From Naegleria gruberi (Eukaryota): a DNA stretch of 13,994 nt. Shown piece after piece: positions 1 to 13,994 of the stretch (the first letter of the stretch is position 1; every line of letters starts with the position of its first letter). A model generated the notes under the pieces. That model saw nothing but the letters and a program-made list of their open reading frames with translations. It made no database searches and was not told the origin of the DNA. Both the position numbers and the translations under genes were made by a program. The stretch lies in the NCBI GenBank assembly GCA_000004985.1, contig GG738989.1. The stretch is one strand, 5' to 3'.

Positions 1-228
1 AAACCCAAACCCAACCCAAACCAAAACCCAAACCCAAACCCAAACCCAAACCCAAACCCAAACCCAAACCCAAACCCAAACCCAAACCCAAACCCAAACC
101 CAAACCCAAACCCAAACCCAAACCCAAACCCAAACCCAAACCCAAACCCAAACCCAAACCCAAACCCAAACCCAAACCCAAACCCAAACCCAAACCCAAA
201 CCCAAACCCAAACCCAAACCCAAACCCA
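1..228 (-). repeat. Telomeric repeat array (CCCAAA)n on + strand = (TTTGGG)n G-strand on minus strand, ~38 units, terminal
   Basis: Direct: perfect 6-nt periodicity from ~30 to 228. The first five units are degenerate (aaaccc aaaccc aaccc aaacc aaaaccc). The array abruptly stops at ...aaaccca|cgactaagg. The C-rich strand reading 5'->3' at the left edge is the orientation expected for a left chromosome end. Confidence 0.9.
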
Positions 229-1030: not shown

Positions 1031-4000
1031 NNNNNNNNNNNNNNNNNNNNNNNNNNNNNNNNNNNNNNNNNNNNNNNNNNNNNNNNNNNNNNNNNNNNNN
1101 NNNNNNNNNNNNNNNNNNNNNNNNNNNNNNNNNNNNNNNNNNNNNNNNNNNNNNNNNNNNNNNNNNNNNNNNNNNNNNNNNNNNNNNNNNNNNNNNNNNN
1201 NNNNNNNNNNNNNNNNNNNNNNNNNNNNNNNNNNNNNNNNNNNNNNNNNNNNNNNNNNNNNNNNNNNNNNNNNNNNNNNNNNNNNNNNNNNNNNNNNNNN
1301 NNNNNNNNNNNNNNNNNNNNNNNNNNNNNNNNNNNNNNNNNNNNNNNNNNNNNNNNNNNNNNNNNNNNNNNNNNNNNNNNNNNNNNNNNNNNNNNNNNNN
1401 NNNNNNNNNNNNNNNNNNNNNNNNNNNNNNNNNNNNNNNNNNNNNNNNNNNNNNNNNNNNNNNNNNNNNNNNNNNNNNNNNNNNNNNNNNNNNNNNNNNN
1501 NNNNNNNNNNNNNNNNNNNNNNNNNNNNNNNNNNNNNNNNNNNNNNNNNNNNNNNNNNNNNNNNNNNNNNNNNNNNNNNNNNNNNNNNNNNNNNNNNNNN
1601 NNNNNNNNNNNNNNNNNNNNNNNNNNNNNNNNNNNNNNNNNNNNNNNNNNNNNNNNNNNNNNNNNNNNNNNNNNNNNNNNNNNNNNNNNNNNNNNNNNNN
1701 NNNNNNNNNNNNNNNNNNNNNNNNNNNNNNNNNNNNNNNNNNNNNNNNNNNNNNNNNNNNNNNNNNNNNNNNNNNNNNNNNNNNNNNNNNNNNNNNNNNN
1801 NNNNNNNNNNNNNNNNNNNNNNNNNNNNNNNNNNNNNNNNNNNNNNNNNNNNNNNNNNNNNNNNNNNNNNNNNNNNNNNNNNNNNNNNNNNNNNNNNNNN
1901 NNNNNNNNNNNNNNNNNNNNNNNNNNNNNNNNNNNNNNNNNNNNNNNNNNNNNNNNNNNNNNNNNNNNNNNNNNNNNNNNNNNNNNNNNNNNNNNNNNNN
2001 NNNNNNNNNNNNNNNNNNNNNNNNNNNNNNNNNNNNNNNNNNNNNNNNNNNNNNNNNNNNNNNNNNNNNNNNNNNNNNNNNNNNNNNNNNNNNNNNNNNN
2101 NNNNNNNNNNNNNNNNNNNNNNNNNNNNNNNNNNNNNNNNNNNNNNNNNNNNNNNNNNNNNNNNNNNNNNNNNNNNNNNNNNNNNNNNNNNNNNNNNNNN
2201 NNNNNNNNNNNNNNNNNNNNNNNNNNNNNNNNNNNNNNNNNNNNNNNNNNNNNNNNNNNNNNNNNNNNNNNNNNNNNNNNNNNNNNNNNNNNNNNNNNNN
2301 NNNNNNNNNNNNNNNNNNNNNNNNNNNNNNNNNNNNNNNNNNNNNNNNNNNNNNNNNNNNNNNNNNNNNNNNNNNNNNNNNNNNNNNNNNNNNNNNNNNN
2401 NNNNNNNNNNNNNNNNNNNNNNNNNNNNNNNNNNNNNNNNNNNNNNNNNNNNNNNNNNNNNNNNNNNNNNNNNNNNNNNNNNNNNNNNNNNNNNNNNNNN
2501 NNNNNNNNNNNNNNNNNNNNNNNNNNNNNNNNNNNNNNNNNNNNNNNNNNNNNNNNNNNNNNNNNNNNNNNNNNNNNNNNNNNNNNNNNNNNNNNNNNNN
2601 NNNNNNNNNNNNNNNNNNNNNNNNNNNNNNNNNNNNNNNNNNNNNNNNNNNNNNNNNNNNNNNNNNNNNNNNNNNNNNNNNNNNNNNNNNNNNNNNNNNN
2701 NNNNNNNNNNNNNNNNNNNNNNNNNNNNNNNNNNNNNNNNNNNNNNNNNNNNNNNNNNNNNNNNNNNNNNNNNNNNNNNNNNNNNNNNNNNNNNNNNNNN
2801 NNNNNNNNNNNNNNNNNNNNNNNNNNNNNNNNNNNNNNNNNNNNNNNNNNNNNNNNNNNNNNNNNNNNNNNNNNNNNNNNNNNNNNNNNNNNNNNNNNNN
2901 NNNNNNNNNNNNNNNNNNNNNNNNNNNNNNNNNNNNNNNNNNNNNNNNNNNNNNNNNNNNNNNNNNNNNNNNNNNNNNNNNNNNNNNNNNNNNNNNNNNN
3001 NNNNNNNNNNNNNNNNNNNNNNNNNNNNNNNNNNNNNNNNNNNNNNNNNNNNNNNNNNNNNNNNNNNNNNNNNNNNNNNNNNNNNNNNNNNNNNNNNNNN
3101 NNNNNNNNNNNNNNNNNNNNNNNNNNNNNNNNNNNNNNNNNNNNNNNNNNNNNNNNNNNNNNNNNNNNNNNNNNNNNNNNNNNNNNNNNNNNNNNNNNNN
3201 NNNNNNNNNNNNNNNNNNNNNNNNNNNNNNNNNNNNNNNNNNNNNNNNNNNNNNNNNNNNNNNNNNNNNNNNNNNNNNNNNNNNNNNNNNNNNNNNNNNN
3301 NNNNNNNNNNNNNNNNNNNNNNNNNNNNNNNNNNNNNNNNNNNNNNNNNNNNNNNNNNNNNNNNNNNNNNNNNNNNNNNNNNNNNNNNNNNNNNNNNNNN
3401 NNNNNNNNNNNNNNNNNNNNNNNNNNNNNNNNNNNNNNNNNNNNNNNNNNNNNNNNNNNNNNNNNNNNNNNNNNNNNNNNNNNNNNNNNNNNNNNNNNNN
3501 NNNNNNNNNNNNNNNNNNNNNNNNNNNNNNNNNNNNNNNNNNNNNNNNNNNNNNNNNNNNNNNNNNNNNNNNNNNNNNNNNNNNNNNNNNNNNNNNNNNN
3601 NNNNNNNNNNNNNNNNNNNNNNNNNNNNNNNNNNNNNNNNNNNNNNNNNNNNNNNNNNNNNNNNNNNNNNNNNNNNNNNNNNNNNNNNNNNNNNNNNNNN
3701 NNNNNNNNNNNNNNNNNNNNNNNNNNNNNNNNNNNNNNNNNNNNNNNNNNNNNNNNNNNNNNNNNNNNNNNNNNNNNNNNNNNNNNNNNNNNNNNNNNNN
3801 NNNNNNNNNNNNNNNNNNNNNNNNNNNNNNNNNNNNNNNNNNNNNNNNNNNNNNNNNNNNNNNNNNNNNNNNNNNNNNNNNNNNNNNNNNNNNNNNNNNN
3901 NNNNNNNNNNNNNNNNNNNNNNNNNNNNNNNNNNNNNNNNNNNNNNNNNNNNNNNNNNNNNNNNNNNNNNNNNNNNNNNNNNNNNNNNNNNNNNNNNNNN

Positions 4001-4866
4001 NNNNNNNNNNNNNNNNNNNNNNNNNNNNNNNNNNNNNNNNNNNNNNNNNNNNNNNNNNNNNNNNNNNNNNNNNNNNNNNNNNNNNNNNNNNNNNNNNNNN
4101 NNNNNNNNNNNNNNNNNNNNNNNNNNNNNNNNNNNNNNNNNNNNNNNNNNNNNNNNNNNNNNNNNNNNNNNNNNNNNNNNNNNNNNNNNNNNNNNNNNNN
4201 NNNNNNNNNNNNNNNNNNNNNNNNNNNNNNNNNNNNNNNNNNNNNNNNNNNNNNNNNNNNNNNNNNNNNNNNNNNNNNNNNNNNNNNNNNNNNNNNNNNN
4301 NNNNNNNNNNNNNNNNNNNNNNNNNNNNNNNNNNNNNNNNNNNNNNNNNNNNNNNNNNNNNNNNNNNNNNNNNNNNNNNNNNNNNNNNNNNNNNNNNNNN
4401 NNNNNNNNNNNNNNNNNNNNNNNNNNNNNNNNNNNNNNNNNNNNNNNNNNNNNNNNNNNNNNNNNNNNNNNNNNNNNNNNNNNNNNNNNNNNNNNNNNNN
4501 NNNNNNNNNNNNNNNNNNNNNNNNNNNNNNNNNNNNNNNNNNNNNNNNNNNNNNNNNNNNNNNNNNNNNNNNNNNNNNNNNNNNNNNNNNNNNNNNNNNN
4601 NNNNNNNNNNNNNNNNNNNNNNNNNNNNNNNNNNNNNNNNNNNNNNNNNNNNNNNNNNNNNNNNNNNNNNNNNNNNNNNNNNNNNNNNNNNNNNNNNNNN
4701 NNNNNNNNNNNNNNNNNNNNNNNNNNNNNNNNNNNNNNNNNNNNNNNNNNNNNNNNNNNNNNNNNNNNNNNNNNNNNNNNNNNNNNNNNNNNNNNNNNNN
4801 NNNNNNNNNNNNNNNNNNNNNNNNNNNNNNNNNNNNNNNNNNNNNNNNNNNNNNNNNNNNNNNNNN
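1031..4866. other. Run of 3836 N (assembly gap or masked sequence); content unknowable
   Basis: Direct: all N. The six-frame ORFs of X residues across it are artefacts. Confidence 0.99.
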
Positions 4867-6173
4867 AAAAGATATTGAGTTGACAACTCTATCATTTTAC
4901 TATAGAACTTTGACATAAAAACAAAGATTATGCTCCAAATCACTTATTTTATATGTAATTAGTCTAGAATTGATAACACAAATTCTATACACCATTTATA
5001 TACATCTATACAAGTTTAGAAACAATTCATGATACTTTCATTCAGTCAATCAGTAAATGTTCAATGTCAATATGCTTATATCCAATTGTACACTCTGTCT
5101 CAATGAAAGTATATCCAAACATCATGTAACTTTACCAGATACATTTATTCACACTGATATACATCTGGTATCAATTTTAGTGTTTTAGAATTGAATTCAA
5201 TATGATAATAATAACAATCTGTCAAATTGTCATATTTCAACATATAGAATGAATACCATCTCAGTCAGTTTACAAAATATCATACTTGTATCAAATATGA
5301 ATACACTTCCCTTGATGAGGAGAACAATCTGAGAAAGTTTTATATTCATGGCAACATTCCATCTAAGGTAATCAAAAGGGAAGAATCTTAATTTCAAAAT
5401 TAATTTTTACCATCATATCCAAAATCCAAATCATTGAATAATGAATTAATTATACAAGAATAATACATTCAATTATTATATTCATGTCAGTAATCAGTGA
5501 AGGTGACACTTCTTTCACCTTATACACATCTCAATATCTAGACTGTCTATTCCACTGAAACTTGAAATATTACCTATCCAGATGATATAATGATGACTCT
5601 CCATAGTAACATACATGTGAAATTGAATATTGACACTTTTCATCTTGTTATATTTATAGAGATGGTATCCAACAGAGTCAGTTCACAATCTTAAATATTG
5701 AAACTCATTCTGTATGACATACGTGATGTATAGAACGGTTTTTTTATTGAATGTAATCAGTTTGAAACAATTTGATGAAATTGACACTGTCTAATCACCT
5801 TTACATGACAAATAGTCCATTGCTTACATTCCATCTCAGTCACTTCAGCGATTTATTGGTTAATTCCACCAACAGTATGTTTCTCATACATTTTAGTACA
5901 GTTTATATTTCAAGAGTGATTTCTGTGTAGATTATTATAATCGTAATTCCATGCAATACCAATAAAACTCAGTAGAAGAGTTAATTCTTCTCATTTTCAA
6001 ATAGATTATTCAATATAGAACACATCTAGATATTAATATAATATAATCAATGATATGAATCTTCACTAAGTAATCTATTAAATAACCCAAATAAATCAAC
6101 TCTGAATCCTAACCTTACACCTTTTATTTAATAAATATTAAATTTTATAAGGTTAATCTTTTCCAATTGATTC
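4867..6173. other. Stop-rich non-coding block downstream of the NHL gene, containing degenerate internal repeats
   Basis: No ORF of 60 aa or more in any frame. + strand is A/C-rich and G-poor. Repeated motif families: ccatctcagtca (5257, 5834), agtcagtt[t/c]aca (5266, 5678), gtaatcagt..tgacact..tcacctt (5489-5527 and 5749-5805), gaaattga..cact (5621, 5775). Small hairpin aaggtga/tcacctt at 5501-5524. Confidence 0.5.
6123..6128 (-). terminator. Candidate AATAAA polyadenylation signal for the NHL gene (~45 nt 3' of its stop)
   Basis: + strand tttatt at 6123-6128 reads aataaa on the minus strand, downstream of the TAA stop at 6174-6176. Confidence 0.4.
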
Positions 6174-7241
6174 TTAAACAATTTGACAAATTAAAATCAA
6201 ATCATGATATGATTTTGGGAATGGTTTGATTGGTGATTTCTTTCTTGGTGGTCCAATATGTGGATATTGTTGGAAATCAAATGGAACATCTCCTGAATAT
6301 CCAAATACATCTCCAATTCCAGCAATTATTTTCATATTTCCATTCTTGAAAATCTTTCTTACGCAATGATTATAGTAGTCAGCAAAATAAACTTGATTTT
6401 TTGAATCAACAAATATTCCTTTTGGCCAACTAAGTGTTGTTCTTGTTGCTAATTTATAATCTCCATTATATCCTTTTTTTCCTGGAATTCCTGCAATGTT
6501 TTTGATGATTCCATTGGGTAATATCTTTCTTATCACTTGATTGTCTAAATCTGAAAAGTAAATTTCATCATTGTGAACAAAGAGAGAATTAGGGTTGTTC
6601 AAACTTGTATCAGTGGCATTCCTTCCATCTCCATTGTATCCTTCAATTCCATTTCCTGCAATTGTGTGGATGATTCCATCACGATCAATTTTTCTAATCC
6701 TATTACTGAAGGAATCTGCAATGTAAATTTCATCTTTGTATTGAAATACACTACAAGGGTGTTTCAATGAACTCAATGTTGCCAATTGATTATCTCCATC
6801 GTATCCTTCAATTCCATCTCCAGCAATTGTTGTAATGATTCCATTTCTATCAATCTTTCTCACACGATGATTTCTTCTATCACAAAATAATACTTCATCA
6901 TCATCAGTAACAAAAAGACCACAAGGAGAGTTCAAGTTTGCATTTACAGCCAATTGATCATCTCCATTGTATTCTGTTTCACATGTTCCGGCAATTTTTG
7001 TCATGATTCCAAATTCATCAATCTTGTAAATCAAATGACGCTCATTTTCCGAAATATAAACTTGATTTGATGATGAAACAACAATAGAAGATGGATTATA
7101 CAATGATGCACGCTCATTTCCTGCAATTGTTACAATTTGACCATTCCGAAGCAATTTTCTCACTCGATCATTACCCGTATCAGCAATAAATACTTCGTCA
7201 TTGGAAACAAAAATGGCACTAGGGTTATCGAGTTTTGACAT
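6174..7241 (-). CDS. NHL-repeat beta-propeller protein, six NHL blades, 355 aa, single exon
   Basis: ATG at 7241-7239 (minus), TAA at 6176-6174. Six tandem ~45-aa repeats, each with the L-N-x-P-x-x-[IL]-[FV]-V...[IV]-x-[VF]-[SA]-D...N-x-R-[VI]-R-K-[IL]...G-x-[IV]-x-T-I-A-G signature separated by GY[ND]GD linkers, which is the NHL repeat family. The ORF extends upstream to 7310, but that part begins with TTG and has an in-frame TAG at 7328-7326, so the first ATG (residue 24 of the ORF) is taken as the start. Confidence 0.85.
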   Translation of the reverse strand: MSKLDNPSAIFVSNDEVFIADTGNDRVRKLLRNGQIVTIAGNERASLYNPSSIVVSSSNQVYISENERHLIYKIDEFGIMTKIAGTCETEYNGDDQLAVNANLNSPCGLFVTDDDEVLFCDRRNHRVRKIDRNGIITTIAGDGIEGYDGDNQLATLSSLKHPCSVFQYKDEIYIADSFSNRIRKIDRDGIIHTIAGNGIEGYNGDGRNATDTSLNNPNSLFVHNDEIYFSDLDNQVIRKILPNGIIKNIAGIPGKKGYNGDYKLATRTTLSWPKGIFVDSKNQVYFADYYNHCVRKIFKNGNMKIIAGIGDVFGYSGDVPFDFQQYPHIGPPRKKSPIKPFPKSYHDLILICQIV

Positions 7242-7501
7242 TTTTTTGCTATATACTCGACTATGTTTTTTGAAGTTCGCTGGAATATTGTTAATCAAGT
7301 GAATTTTCAAATTTCTTCCATCACTCTAATCTGTACTAGTTGCAATACAATAACCATTTCTATAAATTGTTTGAAATGATAACAGTGAGTTGTGGAGGAT
7401 TGAGATGAATAAGGTTTTTACAACAGTTATTCCAATAAAATTTGGAAAGATTGCACTTGAAAAGTTCTCAGATTTCCAAATATTGCATTAAAATTCAGTG
7501 C

Positions 7502-7507
7502 TTTATT
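7502..7507 (-). terminator. Candidate AATAAA polyadenylation signal for the P4-ATPase gene (~45 nt 3' of its stop)
   Basis: + strand tttatt at 7502-7507 reads aataaa on the minus strand, just downstream of the TAA at 7552-7550. Confidence 0.4.
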
Positions 7508-7549
7508 TTACAACCAAAATCACATTTACATAGTCCTAAGGTTGAAAAC

Positions 7550-8059
7550 TTATTTGATGAACTGCATCTCCTTTCTAATTTGTTTTCTTTTTTCTTGTAA
7601 CTCATAGAGGAAATTTCTATCATACATTCTCACAAAACCTTTCCAGAAAATATCACGAAGGCAACATGCAAAGGCAACCAACATTAGAATGAAATAAAAT
7701 TGAGGTGAGAGGAAAATTCTCCATCTCTGTGTGATACTGTAGGTTTCAGAAAGGACAGGATAAGGATACTTGATTAGATAATAAACACTTCCGTATGAGA
7801 AGACAAATGCAGGAAATGAAAGATAAAATCCAAAATAAAAGAGACAATGTACAATGGTCCAAGAGGCTGTCTCAATTGCCAACTTGAATAATGTTACAGC
7901 CAGAACACAGGAATAAACTGCAATTCCAATAGTTTGTGTATCAATATCTTGTCCATCAATGAATTTGCTATCCACTAAACAATAGTATGGAATGAAGAAA
8001 CAAATTGTAGAATGGAATACTGCATTCACAATCCATGAAATGAATATTTTGGCATTGAA
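7550..8059 (-). CDS. P4-type ATPase (phospholipid flippase), terminal exon: TM segments 7-10 and short C-tail, stop TAA
   Basis: Translation FNAKIFISWIVNAVFHS...FKLAIETASWT...CCLRDIFWKGF...ELQEKRKQIRKEMQFIK* matches the conserved P4-ATPase C-terminal membrane domain (ATP8A/Drs2 family). The exon starts immediately after an AG at 8061-8060 (minus strand), phase 0. Confidence 0.88.
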   Translation of the reverse strand, partial: FNAKIFISWIVNAVFHSTICFFIPYYCLVDSKFIDGQDIDTQTIGIAVYSCVLAVTLFKLAIETASWTIVHCLFYFGFYLSFPAFVFSYGSVYYLIKYPYPVLSETYSITQRWRIFLSPQFYFILMLVAFACCLRDIFWKGFVRMYDRNFLYELQEKRKQIRKEMQFIK

Positions 8060-8105
8060 CTATTCGAAGATAATTAATAAATTAAAACAAGTAACTTGAA
8101 CTTAC
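8060..8105 (-). other. Intron (46 nt), donor GTAAGT, acceptor ...AATAG
   Basis: Minus strand: YPELYFQGQKNRY|gtaagttcaag...cgaatag|FNAKIF. The in-frame TAG stop of the ORF track coincides with the acceptor AG. Flanking exons align contiguously to the P4-ATPase family. Confidence 0.8.
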
Positions 8106-8494
8106 ATATCTGTTTTTTTGTCCTTGGAAATAAAGTTCTGGATACTTTTCAGCAATATAATCAGGTACATCTCTATCCATAAATGCGAGGGCAACAATTG
8201 GAAGTCCAGTGAAAATTGTGTTATAGAGTGCTATTGTCCAATTATCATGAAGTGAAGCTCCTGAATAGCCATTATAAATATTGAACCACAATTGAGTTAA
8301 GAAGAAGAGAATATTCTTGTAGAAAACATAAACCACCAACTTGGAAACTCTTCTATAGTTCCATCTTCCATGAACGAGTAATAAACGTTTGAGGAATCTA
8401 AATTGGCCAATTGCATAATCTGAAGCATTGACAGCTTGTAAACCTTCCATTCCTGAAATTCCAATTCCAACATTGGCACTTTGAATCATGCTCA
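8106..8494 (-). CDS. P4-type ATPase internal exon (post-hinge region to start of TM segments)
   Basis: (V)SMIQSANVGIGISGMEGLQAVNASDYAIGQFRFLKRLLLVHGRWNYRRVSKLVVYVFYKNI...YPELYFQGQKNRY is the near-invariant P4-ATPase block following the GDGANDV motif. The first codon is split (phase 1) with the upstream exon. Confidence 0.9.
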
Positions 8495-8534
8495 CTTTAG
8501 AAAGTTAATTATTAAAACTGTGTTTTGAACTTAC
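8495..8534 (-). other. Intron (40 nt), donor GTAAGT, acceptor ...CTAAAG, phase 1
   Basis: Minus strand: ...AIGDGSND(g)|gtaagttcaaaacacag...ctaaag|(tg)SMIQ. Splicing restores the GDGSNDVSMIQ motif exactly. Confidence 0.85.
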
Positions 8535-8620
8535 CGTCATTACTACCATCTCCAATTGCCAACGTTACACAAGTTACATTATTTTTGATTAACAATACAA
8601 TGTCAGATTTTTGCTTTGGA
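8535..8620 (-). CDS. P4-type ATPase exon fragment (PKQKSDIVLLIKNNVTCVTLAIGDGSND...), continues 5' into the N-block
   Basis: Contains the P-type ATPase hinge motif GDGxND preceded by VTLAIGDG, as in ATP8A-type flippases. The upstream part of the gene (about 850 aa expected) is hidden in 8621-12169. Confidence 0.85.
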
Positions 8621-11600
8621 NNNNNNNNNNNNNNNNNNNNNNNNNNNNNNNNNNNNNNNNNNNNNNNNNNNNNNNNNNNNNNNNNNNNNNNNNNNNNNNN
8701 NNNNNNNNNNNNNNNNNNNNNNNNNNNNNNNNNNNNNNNNNNNNNNNNNNNNNNNNNNNNNNNNNNNNNNNNNNNNNNNNNNNNNNNNNNNNNNNNNNNN
8801 NNNNNNNNNNNNNNNNNNNNNNNNNNNNNNNNNNNNNNNNNNNNNNNNNNNNNNNNNNNNNNNNNNNNNNNNNNNNNNNNNNNNNNNNNNNNNNNNNNNN
8901 NNNNNNNNNNNNNNNNNNNNNNNNNNNNNNNNNNNNNNNNNNNNNNNNNNNNNNNNNNNNNNNNNNNNNNNNNNNNNNNNNNNNNNNNNNNNNNNNNNNN
9001 NNNNNNNNNNNNNNNNNNNNNNNNNNNNNNNNNNNNNNNNNNNNNNNNNNNNNNNNNNNNNNNNNNNNNNNNNNNNNNNNNNNNNNNNNNNNNNNNNNNN
9101 NNNNNNNNNNNNNNNNNNNNNNNNNNNNNNNNNNNNNNNNNNNNNNNNNNNNNNNNNNNNNNNNNNNNNNNNNNNNNNNNNNNNNNNNNNNNNNNNNNNN
9201 NNNNNNNNNNNNNNNNNNNNNNNNNNNNNNNNNNNNNNNNNNNNNNNNNNNNNNNNNNNNNNNNNNNNNNNNNNNNNNNNNNNNNNNNNNNNNNNNNNNN
9301 NNNNNNNNNNNNNNNNNNNNNNNNNNNNNNNNNNNNNNNNNNNNNNNNNNNNNNNNNNNNNNNNNNNNNNNNNNNNNNNNNNNNNNNNNNNNNNNNNNNN
9401 NNNNNNNNNNNNNNNNNNNNNNNNNNNNNNNNNNNNNNNNNNNNNNNNNNNNNNNNNNNNNNNNNNNNNNNNNNNNNNNNNNNNNNNNNNNNNNNNNNNN
9501 NNNNNNNNNNNNNNNNNNNNNNNNNNNNNNNNNNNNNNNNNNNNNNNNNNNNNNNNNNNNNNNNNNNNNNNNNNNNNNNNNNNNNNNNNNNNNNNNNNNN
9601 NNNNNNNNNNNNNNNNNNNNNNNNNNNNNNNNNNNNNNNNNNNNNNNNNNNNNNNNNNNNNNNNNNNNNNNNNNNNNNNNNNNNNNNNNNNNNNNNNNNN
9701 NNNNNNNNNNNNNNNNNNNNNNNNNNNNNNNNNNNNNNNNNNNNNNNNNNNNNNNNNNNNNNNNNNNNNNNNNNNNNNNNNNNNNNNNNNNNNNNNNNNN
9801 NNNNNNNNNNNNNNNNNNNNNNNNNNNNNNNNNNNNNNNNNNNNNNNNNNNNNNNNNNNNNNNNNNNNNNNNNNNNNNNNNNNNNNNNNNNNNNNNNNNN
9901 NNNNNNNNNNNNNNNNNNNNNNNNNNNNNNNNNNNNNNNNNNNNNNNNNNNNNNNNNNNNNNNNNNNNNNNNNNNNNNNNNNNNNNNNNNNNNNNNNNNN
10001 NNNNNNNNNNNNNNNNNNNNNNNNNNNNNNNNNNNNNNNNNNNNNNNNNNNNNNNNNNNNNNNNNNNNNNNNNNNNNNNNNNNNNNNNNNNNNNNNNNNN
10101 NNNNNNNNNNNNNNNNNNNNNNNNNNNNNNNNNNNNNNNNNNNNNNNNNNNNNNNNNNNNNNNNNNNNNNNNNNNNNNNNNNNNNNNNNNNNNNNNNNNN
10201 NNNNNNNNNNNNNNNNNNNNNNNNNNNNNNNNNNNNNNNNNNNNNNNNNNNNNNNNNNNNNNNNNNNNNNNNNNNNNNNNNNNNNNNNNNNNNNNNNNNN
10301 NNNNNNNNNNNNNNNNNNNNNNNNNNNNNNNNNNNNNNNNNNNNNNNNNNNNNNNNNNNNNNNNNNNNNNNNNNNNNNNNNNNNNNNNNNNNNNNNNNNN
10401 NNNNNNNNNNNNNNNNNNNNNNNNNNNNNNNNNNNNNNNNNNNNNNNNNNNNNNNNNNNNNNNNNNNNNNNNNNNNNNNNNNNNNNNNNNNNNNNNNNNN
10501 NNNNNNNNNNNNNNNNNNNNNNNNNNNNNNNNNNNNNNNNNNNNNNNNNNNNNNNNNNNNNNNNNNNNNNNNNNNNNNNNNNNNNNNNNNNNNNNNNNNN
10601 NNNNNNNNNNNNNNNNNNNNNNNNNNNNNNNNNNNNNNNNNNNNNNNNNNNNNNNNNNNNNNNNNNNNNNNNNNNNNNNNNNNNNNNNNNNNNNNNNNNN
10701 NNNNNNNNNNNNNNNNNNNNNNNNNNNNNNNNNNNNNNNNNNNNNNNNNNNNNNNNNNNNNNNNNNNNNNNNNNNNNNNNNNNNNNNNNNNNNNNNNNNN
10801 NNNNNNNNNNNNNNNNNNNNNNNNNNNNNNNNNNNNNNNNNNNNNNNNNNNNNNNNNNNNNNNNNNNNNNNNNNNNNNNNNNNNNNNNNNNNNNNNNNNN
10901 NNNNNNNNNNNNNNNNNNNNNNNNNNNNNNNNNNNNNNNNNNNNNNNNNNNNNNNNNNNNNNNNNNNNNNNNNNNNNNNNNNNNNNNNNNNNNNNNNNNN
11001 NNNNNNNNNNNNNNNNNNNNNNNNNNNNNNNNNNNNNNNNNNNNNNNNNNNNNNNNNNNNNNNNNNNNNNNNNNNNNNNNNNNNNNNNNNNNNNNNNNNN
11101 NNNNNNNNNNNNNNNNNNNNNNNNNNNNNNNNNNNNNNNNNNNNNNNNNNNNNNNNNNNNNNNNNNNNNNNNNNNNNNNNNNNNNNNNNNNNNNNNNNNN
11201 NNNNNNNNNNNNNNNNNNNNNNNNNNNNNNNNNNNNNNNNNNNNNNNNNNNNNNNNNNNNNNNNNNNNNNNNNNNNNNNNNNNNNNNNNNNNNNNNNNNN
11301 NNNNNNNNNNNNNNNNNNNNNNNNNNNNNNNNNNNNNNNNNNNNNNNNNNNNNNNNNNNNNNNNNNNNNNNNNNNNNNNNNNNNNNNNNNNNNNNNNNNN
11401 NNNNNNNNNNNNNNNNNNNNNNNNNNNNNNNNNNNNNNNNNNNNNNNNNNNNNNNNNNNNNNNNNNNNNNNNNNNNNNNNNNNNNNNNNNNNNNNNNNNN
11501 NNNNNNNNNNNNNNNNNNNNNNNNNNNNNNNNNNNNNNNNNNNNNNNNNNNNNNNNNNNNNNNNNNNNNNNNNNNNNNNNNNNNNNNNNNNNNNNNNNNN

Positions 11601-12169
11601 NNNNNNNNNNNNNNNNNNNNNNNNNNNNNNNNNNNNNNNNNNNNNNNNNNNNNNNNNNNNNNNNNNNNNNNNNNNNNNNNNNNNNNNNNNNNNNNNNNNN
11701 NNNNNNNNNNNNNNNNNNNNNNNNNNNNNNNNNNNNNNNNNNNNNNNNNNNNNNNNNNNNNNNNNNNNNNNNNNNNNNNNNNNNNNNNNNNNNNNNNNNN
11801 NNNNNNNNNNNNNNNNNNNNNNNNNNNNNNNNNNNNNNNNNNNNNNNNNNNNNNNNNNNNNNNNNNNNNNNNNNNNNNNNNNNNNNNNNNNNNNNNNNNN
11901 NNNNNNNNNNNNNNNNNNNNNNNNNNNNNNNNNNNNNNNNNNNNNNNNNNNNNNNNNNNNNNNNNNNNNNNNNNNNNNNNNNNNNNNNNNNNNNNNNNNN
12001 NNNNNNNNNNNNNNNNNNNNNNNNNNNNNNNNNNNNNNNNNNNNNNNNNNNNNNNNNNNNNNNNNNNNNNNNNNNNNNNNNNNNNNNNNNNNNNNNNNNN
12101 NNNNNNNNNNNNNNNNNNNNNNNNNNNNNNNNNNNNNNNNNNNNNNNNNNNNNNNNNNNNNNNNNNNNN
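8621..12169. other. Run of 3549 N (gap or masked); should contain the N-terminal about two thirds of the P4-ATPase gene (minus strand)
   Basis: Direct: all N. The inference about content comes from the truncated P4-ATPase exon at 8535-8620. Confidence 0.95.
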
Positions 12170-12461
12170 TGGAACTATTATATTTAGTAGTAAGAACCTG
12201 GATTATGATGAGGAAGAGGAAGAGGATGAGTATGATGAGGAAGAATTGCCGAAAATTATTGATTTGTATCATTCAGAAACTGGTAAGCTATTCTGTAGAG
12301 AGCTATTAGTTGAAAAGAAAGGGGACATTTTCAATGAACATTCTTTTGGAGCTGGTAGATTGTTGAGTAAGCCAGAAGATAAGATGGAAATAACTGCTAC
12401 AATATGCATGGTGATTGTTCCCAAACAAGCTGACATGAAAAATTACAAGTTGTCATTGTAA
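12170..12461 (+). CDS. 3' end of an unidentified + strand ORF emerging from the gap (poly-acidic DYDEEEEEDEYDEEE stretch, then about 75 aa, TAA stop)
   Basis: Open frame from the gap edge to TAA at 12459-12461. Sense-strand composition is purine-rich. No family recognised; weak resemblance only. Confidence 0.3.
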
Positions 12462-13233
12462 TATGTGCAAGAGTAATAACATTCCAATCTGTTGAAATGT
12501 AGTCACAACTCTTTTTAGCAAAGTTGATCAAAGTTTCACATCAGTTTTTCCAATTTTGGTCAGCATCTCTGTTACTAATGTTGTTGAATCCAAGCTGCAA
12601 AGAATCATTTCACTTATTTTAATATTTCTTGACAAAATGGTTGTGATATGACTTTAAATATTGGTATGAAATCGGTTAGGAAGGTTGCTTGTCTATCATG
12701 TAGTTGCAAGGAAAGCAAGGCTAATTTGTTGTTGGTGGAAGGCTTGATGATTCTCTTCGTTAGCTGTTGATATGAATTAACAAGAAGAAAACTGTTGGTA
12801 GATAACATCACTGGGATGTATTTATTGTTGTGGTGATGAAGATTAAAGAAGTAGATGATGAACAGTTAATGTTAGGAAGCATGTGAAAAATCAACTAGGC
12901 AAATTATGGAAAATACTCGAAAAGCATTGGCAAATCGCCCATCCTGATGAGGTACGATAACAAATCTTCGTCCTCCTCTTCAAATTGGGCCAGTTTGTTT
13001 AACTTGCAGTAAAATTAATTTTACATTAATCTTCTACAACTCTTCCCATGCTCGAAGGAAAGTTTTGAAACTTTCTGGGGTGATGTAATTGATGTAGAAC
13101 AAGGAAATGTTGTTCTTTTTGTTCTACATGTTGTTGATGTTGATGAAAATTATAAAATTAATATTTTGATGGTCATCTTCTTGAAATAAAACGGTCGCAT
13201 CCACTTTGTTGTCATATTCTTGATGATGATTAC

Positions 13234-13482
13234 TCATAACGATGAAGGTTTCCAGCCATGAATCCACAAAAAGTTTTTATAAATTTTATAATTGCTTTCC
13301 AAAATCCGCAATTGATGATAGAATTGTCTAAAATCTAATAATGGTGCTTCCGTATTATACCTCCATGTTCTGTATCCAATCGTTTTAAATGTTATCAAGT
13401 ATTGCTGTTGAAAATCACCAACTGAAAGAGTTGGATTTGTTGAAGAATTTTTCTTTTTAAAATTTTTTACCAAGTGAAACAC
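13234..13482 (-). CDS. Unidentified minus-strand ORF fragment (82 codons), possibly one exon of a spliced gene
   Basis: ORF with non-repetitive amino-acid composition (…GYRTWRYNTEAPLLDFRQFYHQLRILESNYKIYKNFLWIHGWKPSSL). Begins with GTG, not ATG. Neighbouring minus-strand frames also give protein-like fragments. No homology recognised. Confidence 0.2.
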   Translation of the reverse strand: MFHLVKNFKKKNSSTNPTLSVGDFQQQYLITFKTIGYRTWRYNTEAPLLDFRQFYHQLRILESNYKIYKNFLWIHGWKPSSL

Positions 13483-13853
13483 GCATCAAAATTGTTATTG
13501 GTTTTGTTGAACAATAAAATTTAGGTAGAATATATGAAGGAAAATCATTAGATGTGTAGGGGTTTTACGTTTGGAAGATGTCCTAGAATAATTATTCCTC
13601 ATCACGCGAGAAATCATCACCTCCGTATCATTGTTTAGAAATTAATGATTTGTTGCAGACCTTCTATTTAATTTATTTGAAATCATCAACTCGGGATACA
13701 TCACACAAACAAACATTACCCTCAACAGTTTTACCATTTTAATTTTCTCATGATATTGTTCACAACAATCAAAACCAACTTAAAATCTTCCTCGTGACCG
13801 TAAACAATATCACAACCAAAGCAAAAAAACAAACTAAACAACAATAAGATTCA

Positions 13854-13994
13854 ATGGTTGCAAACACTCCATTCAGTTCACTCTTTCTTCATTATACTGG
13901 TTGTCCACTCGTGGCCAAATCATCACTTTTGGGCATGTTGAGAAATTATAGAGAGAGCAAAACGATGCAATCAATCGAAGAAGATTTGAAGAAG
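13854..13994 (+). CDS. Possible 5' end of a + strand gene (ATG at 13854, open to window end, 47 codons)
   Basis: ATG preceded by about 150 nt of A/C-rich, G-poor leader typical of 5'UTRs (…aaccaaagcaaaaaaacaaactaaacaacaataagattcaATGg). No stop before the window end. No homology recognised. Confidence 0.25.
   Translation, partial: MVANTPFSSLFLHYTGCPLVAKSSLLGMLRNYRESKTMQSIEEDLKK

Follow-up and report, generated by a model that had tools for sequence, protein, structure and literature searches.

The first 228 nt of the window, by which we mean the whole 13,994-nt stretch of Naegleria gruberi DNA analyzed here, consist of a tandem hexamer repeat. This raises the question of whether the repeat is a genuine chromosome end, and of which organism it and the accompanying genes come from.

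Layout of the scaffold

A total of 7,385 of the 13,994 positions are N bases, located at 1031-4866 and 8621-12169, and only three stretches (1-1030, 4867-8620 and 12170-13994) are readable. The features annotated in the window are as follows.

1-228: putative telomeric array, C-rich strand (AAACCC)n; the G-rich strand (TTTGGG)n is on the minus strand with its 3' end toward base 1
229-1030: unique AT-rich subtelomeric sequence, ~29% GC, with no convincing ORF
1031-4866: N run of 3,836 nt, separating the array contig (1-1030) from the gene contig
6174-7241, minus strand: NHL-repeat protein gene, single exon, 355 aa, stop TAA; identical to NAEGRDRAFT_76434 (EFC35903.1)
7550-8619, minus strand: 3' part of a P4-ATPase (phospholipid flippase) gene, NAEGRDRAFT_82334 (EFC35904.1, XP_002668648.1)
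8619-8535, 8494-8106 and 8059-7550, minus strand: P4-ATPase exons, with the stop TAA at 7552-7550
8534-8495 (40 nt) and 8105-8060 (46 nt), minus strand: P4-ATPase introns, both starting with GTAAGT
8621-12169: N run of 3,549 nt, interrupting the P4-ATPase gene

The second N run is most likely a real assembly gap, since the annotated P4-ATPase model of 297 aa starts just past it. Given this truncated gene model, the first N run is most likely a sized scaffold gap as well. The physical linkage between the array and the genes rests on scaffolding across the 3,836-N gap, as positions 1-1030 contain no gene. The preliminary description had treated the array and the genes as linked by virtue of sharing the same window, and this link is weaker than was supposed. 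Searching the window, 229-1030 included, against Rfam and for tRNA genes yielded neither an RNA family nor a tRNA, and the repeat search of 229-1030, 4867-8620 and 12170-13994 returned just the blade periodicity of the NHL gene and weak AT-rich repeats.

The terminal array

The array at 1-228 was found to have a period of 6, 38.2 copies, 98% matches and the consensus AAACCC (Tandem Repeats Finder), in agreement with the preliminary description of a clean CCCAAA hexamer array at the terminus. Unit-by-unit parsing gave 35 perfect AAACCC units together with three off-length units (AACCC, AAACC and AAAACCC). The latter, which had earlier been noticed as degenerate 5-mer and 7-mer units at the tip, all lie at positions 13-29, whereas the proximal end of the array is perfect. 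Compared with a perfect array, they amount to one 1-nt deletion (loss of an A) and one C>A substitution. Real variant telomere repeats usually occur at the proximal end. As the off-length units show the reverse of this pattern, being found within 30 nt of the tip, they are more likely to be low-coverage read-end errors than biological variants.

The 18-mer (CCCAAA)3 occurs 31 times, always on the plus strand and within 27-224, as opposed to no occurrence in 200 dinucleotide-preserving shuffles. Outside the array, neither (CCCAAA)2 nor (TTTGGG)2 was found in the window, and the same holds for the template-like sequence CCCAAACCC. The alternative units CCCCAA and TTGGGG are absent from all readable bases of the window. 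The array stops abruptly at unique AT-rich sequence, with the junction falling between CCCA and CGACTAAGGTCAGACCCAACC (or, in a longer reading, between CCCA and CGACTAAGGTCAGACCC).

The C-rich strand reads 5' to 3' inward from base 1, which is the correct (universal) telomere polarity. The array thus combines a short T/G-rich unit, repeated in a long homogeneous run, with a G-rich strand that runs 5' to 3' toward the terminus, and both properties are those of a telomerase-type telomeric minisatellite. The array begins at base 1 of the scaffold, although a scaffold end does not by itself prove that the chromosome ends there.

Genes and genetic code

The ORF of the NHL gene is an exact match to the N. 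gruberi protein EFC35903.1, and the P4-ATPase gene is an exact match to EFC35904.1; after splicing, the P4-ATPase fragment shows 100% identity to the 297-aa entry named 'predicted protein [Naegleria gruberi]'. Judged from these sequences, the window corresponds to one whole, small scaffold of the assembled N. gruberi genome.

No in-frame stop was found across the 682 sense codons of the NHL gene and the 3' part of the P4-ATPase gene, which bears out the earlier statement that more than 650 coding codons are free of in-frame TAA or TAG. The glutamine codons were earlier put at about 30, all CAA or CAG; their usage was described correctly, while the count is 24 (22 CAA and 2 CAG, with 0 of 24 being TAA or TAG). 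TAA stops in both genes and introns of 40-46 nt with GTAAGT donors had likewise been reported, and both observations stand. When ORFs were predicted in the window under seven stop-codon schemes, none of the alternative codes improved the gene models, and the standard code was therefore retained.

Several further observations concern these two genes. Both P4-ATPase introns start with the same 10 nt, GTAAGTTCAA, at 8534-8525 and 8105-8096 on the minus strand, which suggests an extended 5' splice-site consensus in the N. gruberi genome. The NHL protein has a 90% identical paralogue on another small N. gruberi scaffold (9,488 bp), and dozens of relatives at 50-60% identity, ~330-460 aa in length, were found in ENA metagenome assemblies. 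Two contigs with NHL homologues at 58-61% identity (L123 and L124) both come from ENA assembly ERZ27315067, and neither of them was found to contain a TTTGGG array. The next-best matches, at 35-44%, are bacterial NHL and T9SS proteins. The NHL protein seems to belong to a large family that is specific to its lineage and has bacterial-like relatives.

Just upstream of the NHL ORF, an in-frame TAG is present at 7326-7328 (minus strand). Beyond this codon the NHL frame stays open for ~50 further codons (to 7487), including a hydrophobic stretch, with no ATG before it. A decayed 5' exon, an intron that was not recognised and chance are all conceivable explanations of this open frame. On the far side of the second N run, a plus-strand ORF at 12171-12461, which has an acidic stretch and ends in TAA, overlaps the supposed first exon of the P4-ATPase gene (MHIVAVISILSSGLLNNLPAPKECSLK) at 12329-12409 on the minus strand; either the ORF or this exon is probably an artefact of gene modelling.

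The P4-ATPase gene is also represented elsewhere in the assembly. A full-length and essentially identical model of 1139 aa, NAEGRDRAFT_61017, is located on a 174,974-bp N. gruberi scaffold. Its extreme N-terminus corresponds to positions 12409-12329 of the window and its odd C-terminal tail corresponds to the NHL gene of the window, while the model annotated in the window begins at the first Met past the 8621-12169 N run. The differences between the P4-ATPase-NHL locus in the window and that on the 174,974-bp scaffold are ones of gene-model choice. Since the two loci are essentially identical, the 14-kb scaffold looks like an unmerged redundant or allelic piece of a locus that was assembled twice.

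Source lineage and comparison with known telomeres

N. gruberi is an amoeboflagellate of the Heterolobosea (Discoba) and not a ciliate. As a heterolobosean with a standard code, an AT-rich genome and short introns, it accounts for the puzzle of an apparently unassignable lineage.

Paramecium telomeres consist of TTGGG(G/T), in which TTGGGG and TTTGGG units are mixed. In this genus TAA and TAG are read as Gln, TGA is the sole stop codon and introns are 20-30 nt in length. The N. gruberi repeat resembles that of Paramecium in being one of its two units and a hexamer made of T and G only, without A. The likeness ends there: the N. gruberi array is pure TTTGGG without interspersed TTGGGG units, it occurs in a standard-code genome with 40- and 46-nt introns in which TAA and TAG do not stand for Gln, and the two organisms belong to unrelated lineages (Alveolata and Discoba). 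The Tetrahymena repeat TTGGGG and the spirotrich repeat TTTTGGGG are likewise telomerase repeats of the TnGm type, although they have other T:G counts and belong to ciliate lineages. The G-strand of telomeres of this type should be able to form G-quadruplexes. Within Discoba, the trypanosomatids retain TTAGGG, which is the inferred ancestral telomere type of eukaryotes. This unit is also a hexamer with a GGG core, and TTTGGG differs from it at the third base (A>T).

The motif itself has been reported before for this species. In the survey by Fulneckova et al. (Genome Biol Evol 5:468, 2013; PMC3622300), candidate telomeric minisatellites were sought in 143 genome assemblies and scored by their position and orientation at scaffold ends. 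TTTGGG was given for N. gruberi, whose terminal pattern was counted among the convincing ones. The same authors inferred that the alternative motifs in Excavata arose secondarily from TTAGGG, and stated that experimental tests were still necessary to verify that the position is terminal (PMC3622300). The window originates from the N. gruberi nuclear assembly and its TTTGGG repeat is both terminal and correctly oriented, which are the properties by which the 2013 candidate telomere is recognized. The species, the assembly, the hexamer and the kind of evidence are the same in both cases, and nothing substantive differs. The array is one instance of a motif known since 2013 with in-silico support, and is not new. 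In the preliminary description, the combination of features in the window could not be assigned to a well-known lineage, which would make it taxonomically interesting. This view is not supported, as the genes are those of N. gruberi (EFC35903.1 and EFC35904.1) and the TTTGGG repeat was already published for this species (PMC3622300).

In the literature searched, no paper besides PMC3622300 was found to link Naegleria to TTTGGG telomeres, and nothing further was found on Naegleria telomeres, on N. fowleri genomes and telomeres or on N. gruberi TERT. The same literature yielded no experimental proof of an N. gruberi telomere (Bal31, terminal restriction fragments or telomerase assay) and no description of a heterolobosean telomerase RNA.

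Metagenome contigs ending in TTTGGG

Metagenome contigs were scanned for (CCCAAA)6, which gave at least 120 loci. Among the matches listed, most of these arrays are internal and many are located in contigs of high GC content, and the motif is therefore not diagnostic by itself. Arrays located no more than 60 nt from a contig end have the correct polarity in 27 cases and the wrong one in 9, again among the matches listed. A single WGS set, JAESGV01, contributes 13 of the 27 correct-polarity contigs, and all 13 of its 13 contigs among the matches listed are correctly oriented.

JAESGV01 contigs: L008, L030, L032, L043, L055, L078, L079, L083, L084, L085, L103, L116, L121

In 12 of these 13 contigs the array extends to within a few bases of the tip. 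The exception is L083, where a pure block of 36 nt is set back by 41 nt and the tip itself is reached by a shorter block. The JAESGV01 contigs contain long ORFs in the standard code and have subtelomeric repeat families in common with each other, while none of their subtelomeric repeats is found in the window. A P4-ATPase gene with introns of ~30 nt is present in L008. The best named relatives of its product are two paralogues of Acrasis kona, with 63% and 57% identity, compared with ~40-44% for all remaining named taxa, among them N. gruberi. Acrasis kona is a heterolobosean, and the JAESGV01 contigs probably come from an Acrasis-related amoeba, an assignment based on one gene. They resemble the N. 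gruberi array in having pure terminal TTTGGG of the correct polarity, a standard code and short introns. The P4-ATPase identity of only about 40% shows that they belong to an organism other than N. gruberi.

When the window was compared with the first 122 loci (blastn, tblastx and tblastn), no shared subtelomere was found and the sole match was the P4-ATPase gene in L008; no member of the NHL family was found in those 122 loci. The P0122 protein matches are only short metagenome contigs with a Naegleria-like piece of P4-ATPase and without a telomere. Nothing relevant to Acrasis telomeres or to accession JAESGV was found in the literature searched.

Two other observations were made on these contigs. 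Positions 1-518 of L084 are 96% identical to positions 7851-8368 of L008 over the 3' end of the P4-ATPase gene, after which the two sequences diverge. The distance from telomere to gene is ~1.3 kb in L084 and ~7.8 kb in L008, and the two contigs might be alleles, paralogous chromosome ends or the product of a healed truncation. In L026 (Ga0307488_10306250), a (TTTGGG)15 array lies directly next to five TTAGGC units of the nematode type, close to the end of the contig. This is either a terminal repeat of composite structure or the result of chimeric assembly.

Origin of the array

We conclude, with a probability of roughly 0.85, that positions 1-228 represent the inner, assembled portion of a true telomere at a chromosome end of N. 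gruberi, presumably made by telomerase. This conclusion is drawn from the purity of the array, its terminal position on the scaffold, its polarity and the published survey (PMC3622300), and it agrees with the earlier reading of the array as a telomere of pure TTTGGG. From general telomere biology, telomerase (TERT together with an RNA carrying ~1.5 copies of CCCAAA in its template) would extend the TTTGGG strand, after which the C-strand would be filled in. The resulting array would cap the chromosome end and compensate for replicative loss, and the 228 bp assembled here would be a lower bound on the true telomere length.

An improbable alternative is a microsatellite that is interstitial or lies elsewhere away from a chromosome end, with the scaffold ending there through failed assembly extension. 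Long microsatellites of any kind tend to end draft contigs, the right polarity in a single case is an event with a 50% chance, and most (CCCAAA)6 matches in the metagenome contigs, among the matches listed, are internal. These points have to be set against the essentially perfect repeat that occupies 228 nt at the very tip of the scaffold, and against the heterolobosean-like JAESGV01 contigs, which end in TTTGGG with the correct polarity in 13 of 13 cases among the matches listed. The genome-wide survey also called the N. gruberi pattern convincingly terminal (PMC3622300). We regard it as still less probable that the telomere is real and that contig 1-1030 was mis-scaffolded, or stems from a chromosome end or haplotype other than that of the P4-ATPase and NHL genes. 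The sole join of this contig runs across 3,836 N, and the P4-ATPase-NHL locus is found, essentially identical, on the 174,974-bp scaffold as well. No sequence feature contradicts the join, however, and the composition of 229-1030 (~29% GC with a C>G skew) is like that of the non-coding stretch 4867-6170. Such a mis-scaffolding, if it occurred, leaves the conclusion on the repeat itself unchanged.

The last alternative, in which a Paramecium-type ciliate contributed the array as a contaminant or was itself the source of the DNA, was given almost no weight. It draws on the interspersion of TTTGGG with TTGGGG in Paramecium telomeres, while the array in the window contains 35 perfect CCCAAA units and zero CCCCAA units. 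It is further contradicted by the glutamine codons (24 of 24 being CAA or CAG), the TAA stop in both genes, the introns of 40 and 46 nt and the alternative-code ORF scan, which produced no better gene models. A ciliate origin of the genes is ruled out by their exact matches to N. gruberi proteins, and for the array it is very unlikely. The preliminary description had already argued against such a ciliate source on the grounds of the standard code, the TAA stops and the intron lengths, and the identity of the N. gruberi proteins confirms that judgement.

Implications for telomere repeats in Heterolobosea

For N. gruberi itself, the probable telomere at 1-228 is one clean example of a chromosome end that was catalogued in 2013, and it has little wider import. 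The only slight extension past the 2013 report is the tentative hint given by the JAESGV01 contigs and their relation to Acrasis. Known as it is, the repeat provides a concrete search template for the telomerase RNA, namely a 9-11-nt permutation of CCCAAACCCAA.

The JAESGV01 contigs (13 of 13 terminal among the matches listed), taken together with the one gene that is closest to Acrasis kona, raise the possibility that TTTGGG is the telomere repeat of Heterolobosea as a whole, or at least of Tetramitia, and not a peculiarity of N. gruberi. We put this at somewhat below even odds. If it is true, a single TTAGGG>TTTGGG template change would have occurred early in this lineage of Discoba, and heterolobosean telomerase RNA would be searchable through a CCCAAA-permuted template. 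The presence of TTTGGG on Acrasis-like contigs suggests that the motif is old in Heterolobosea, which may be useful for understanding how telomere motifs evolved in Discoba.
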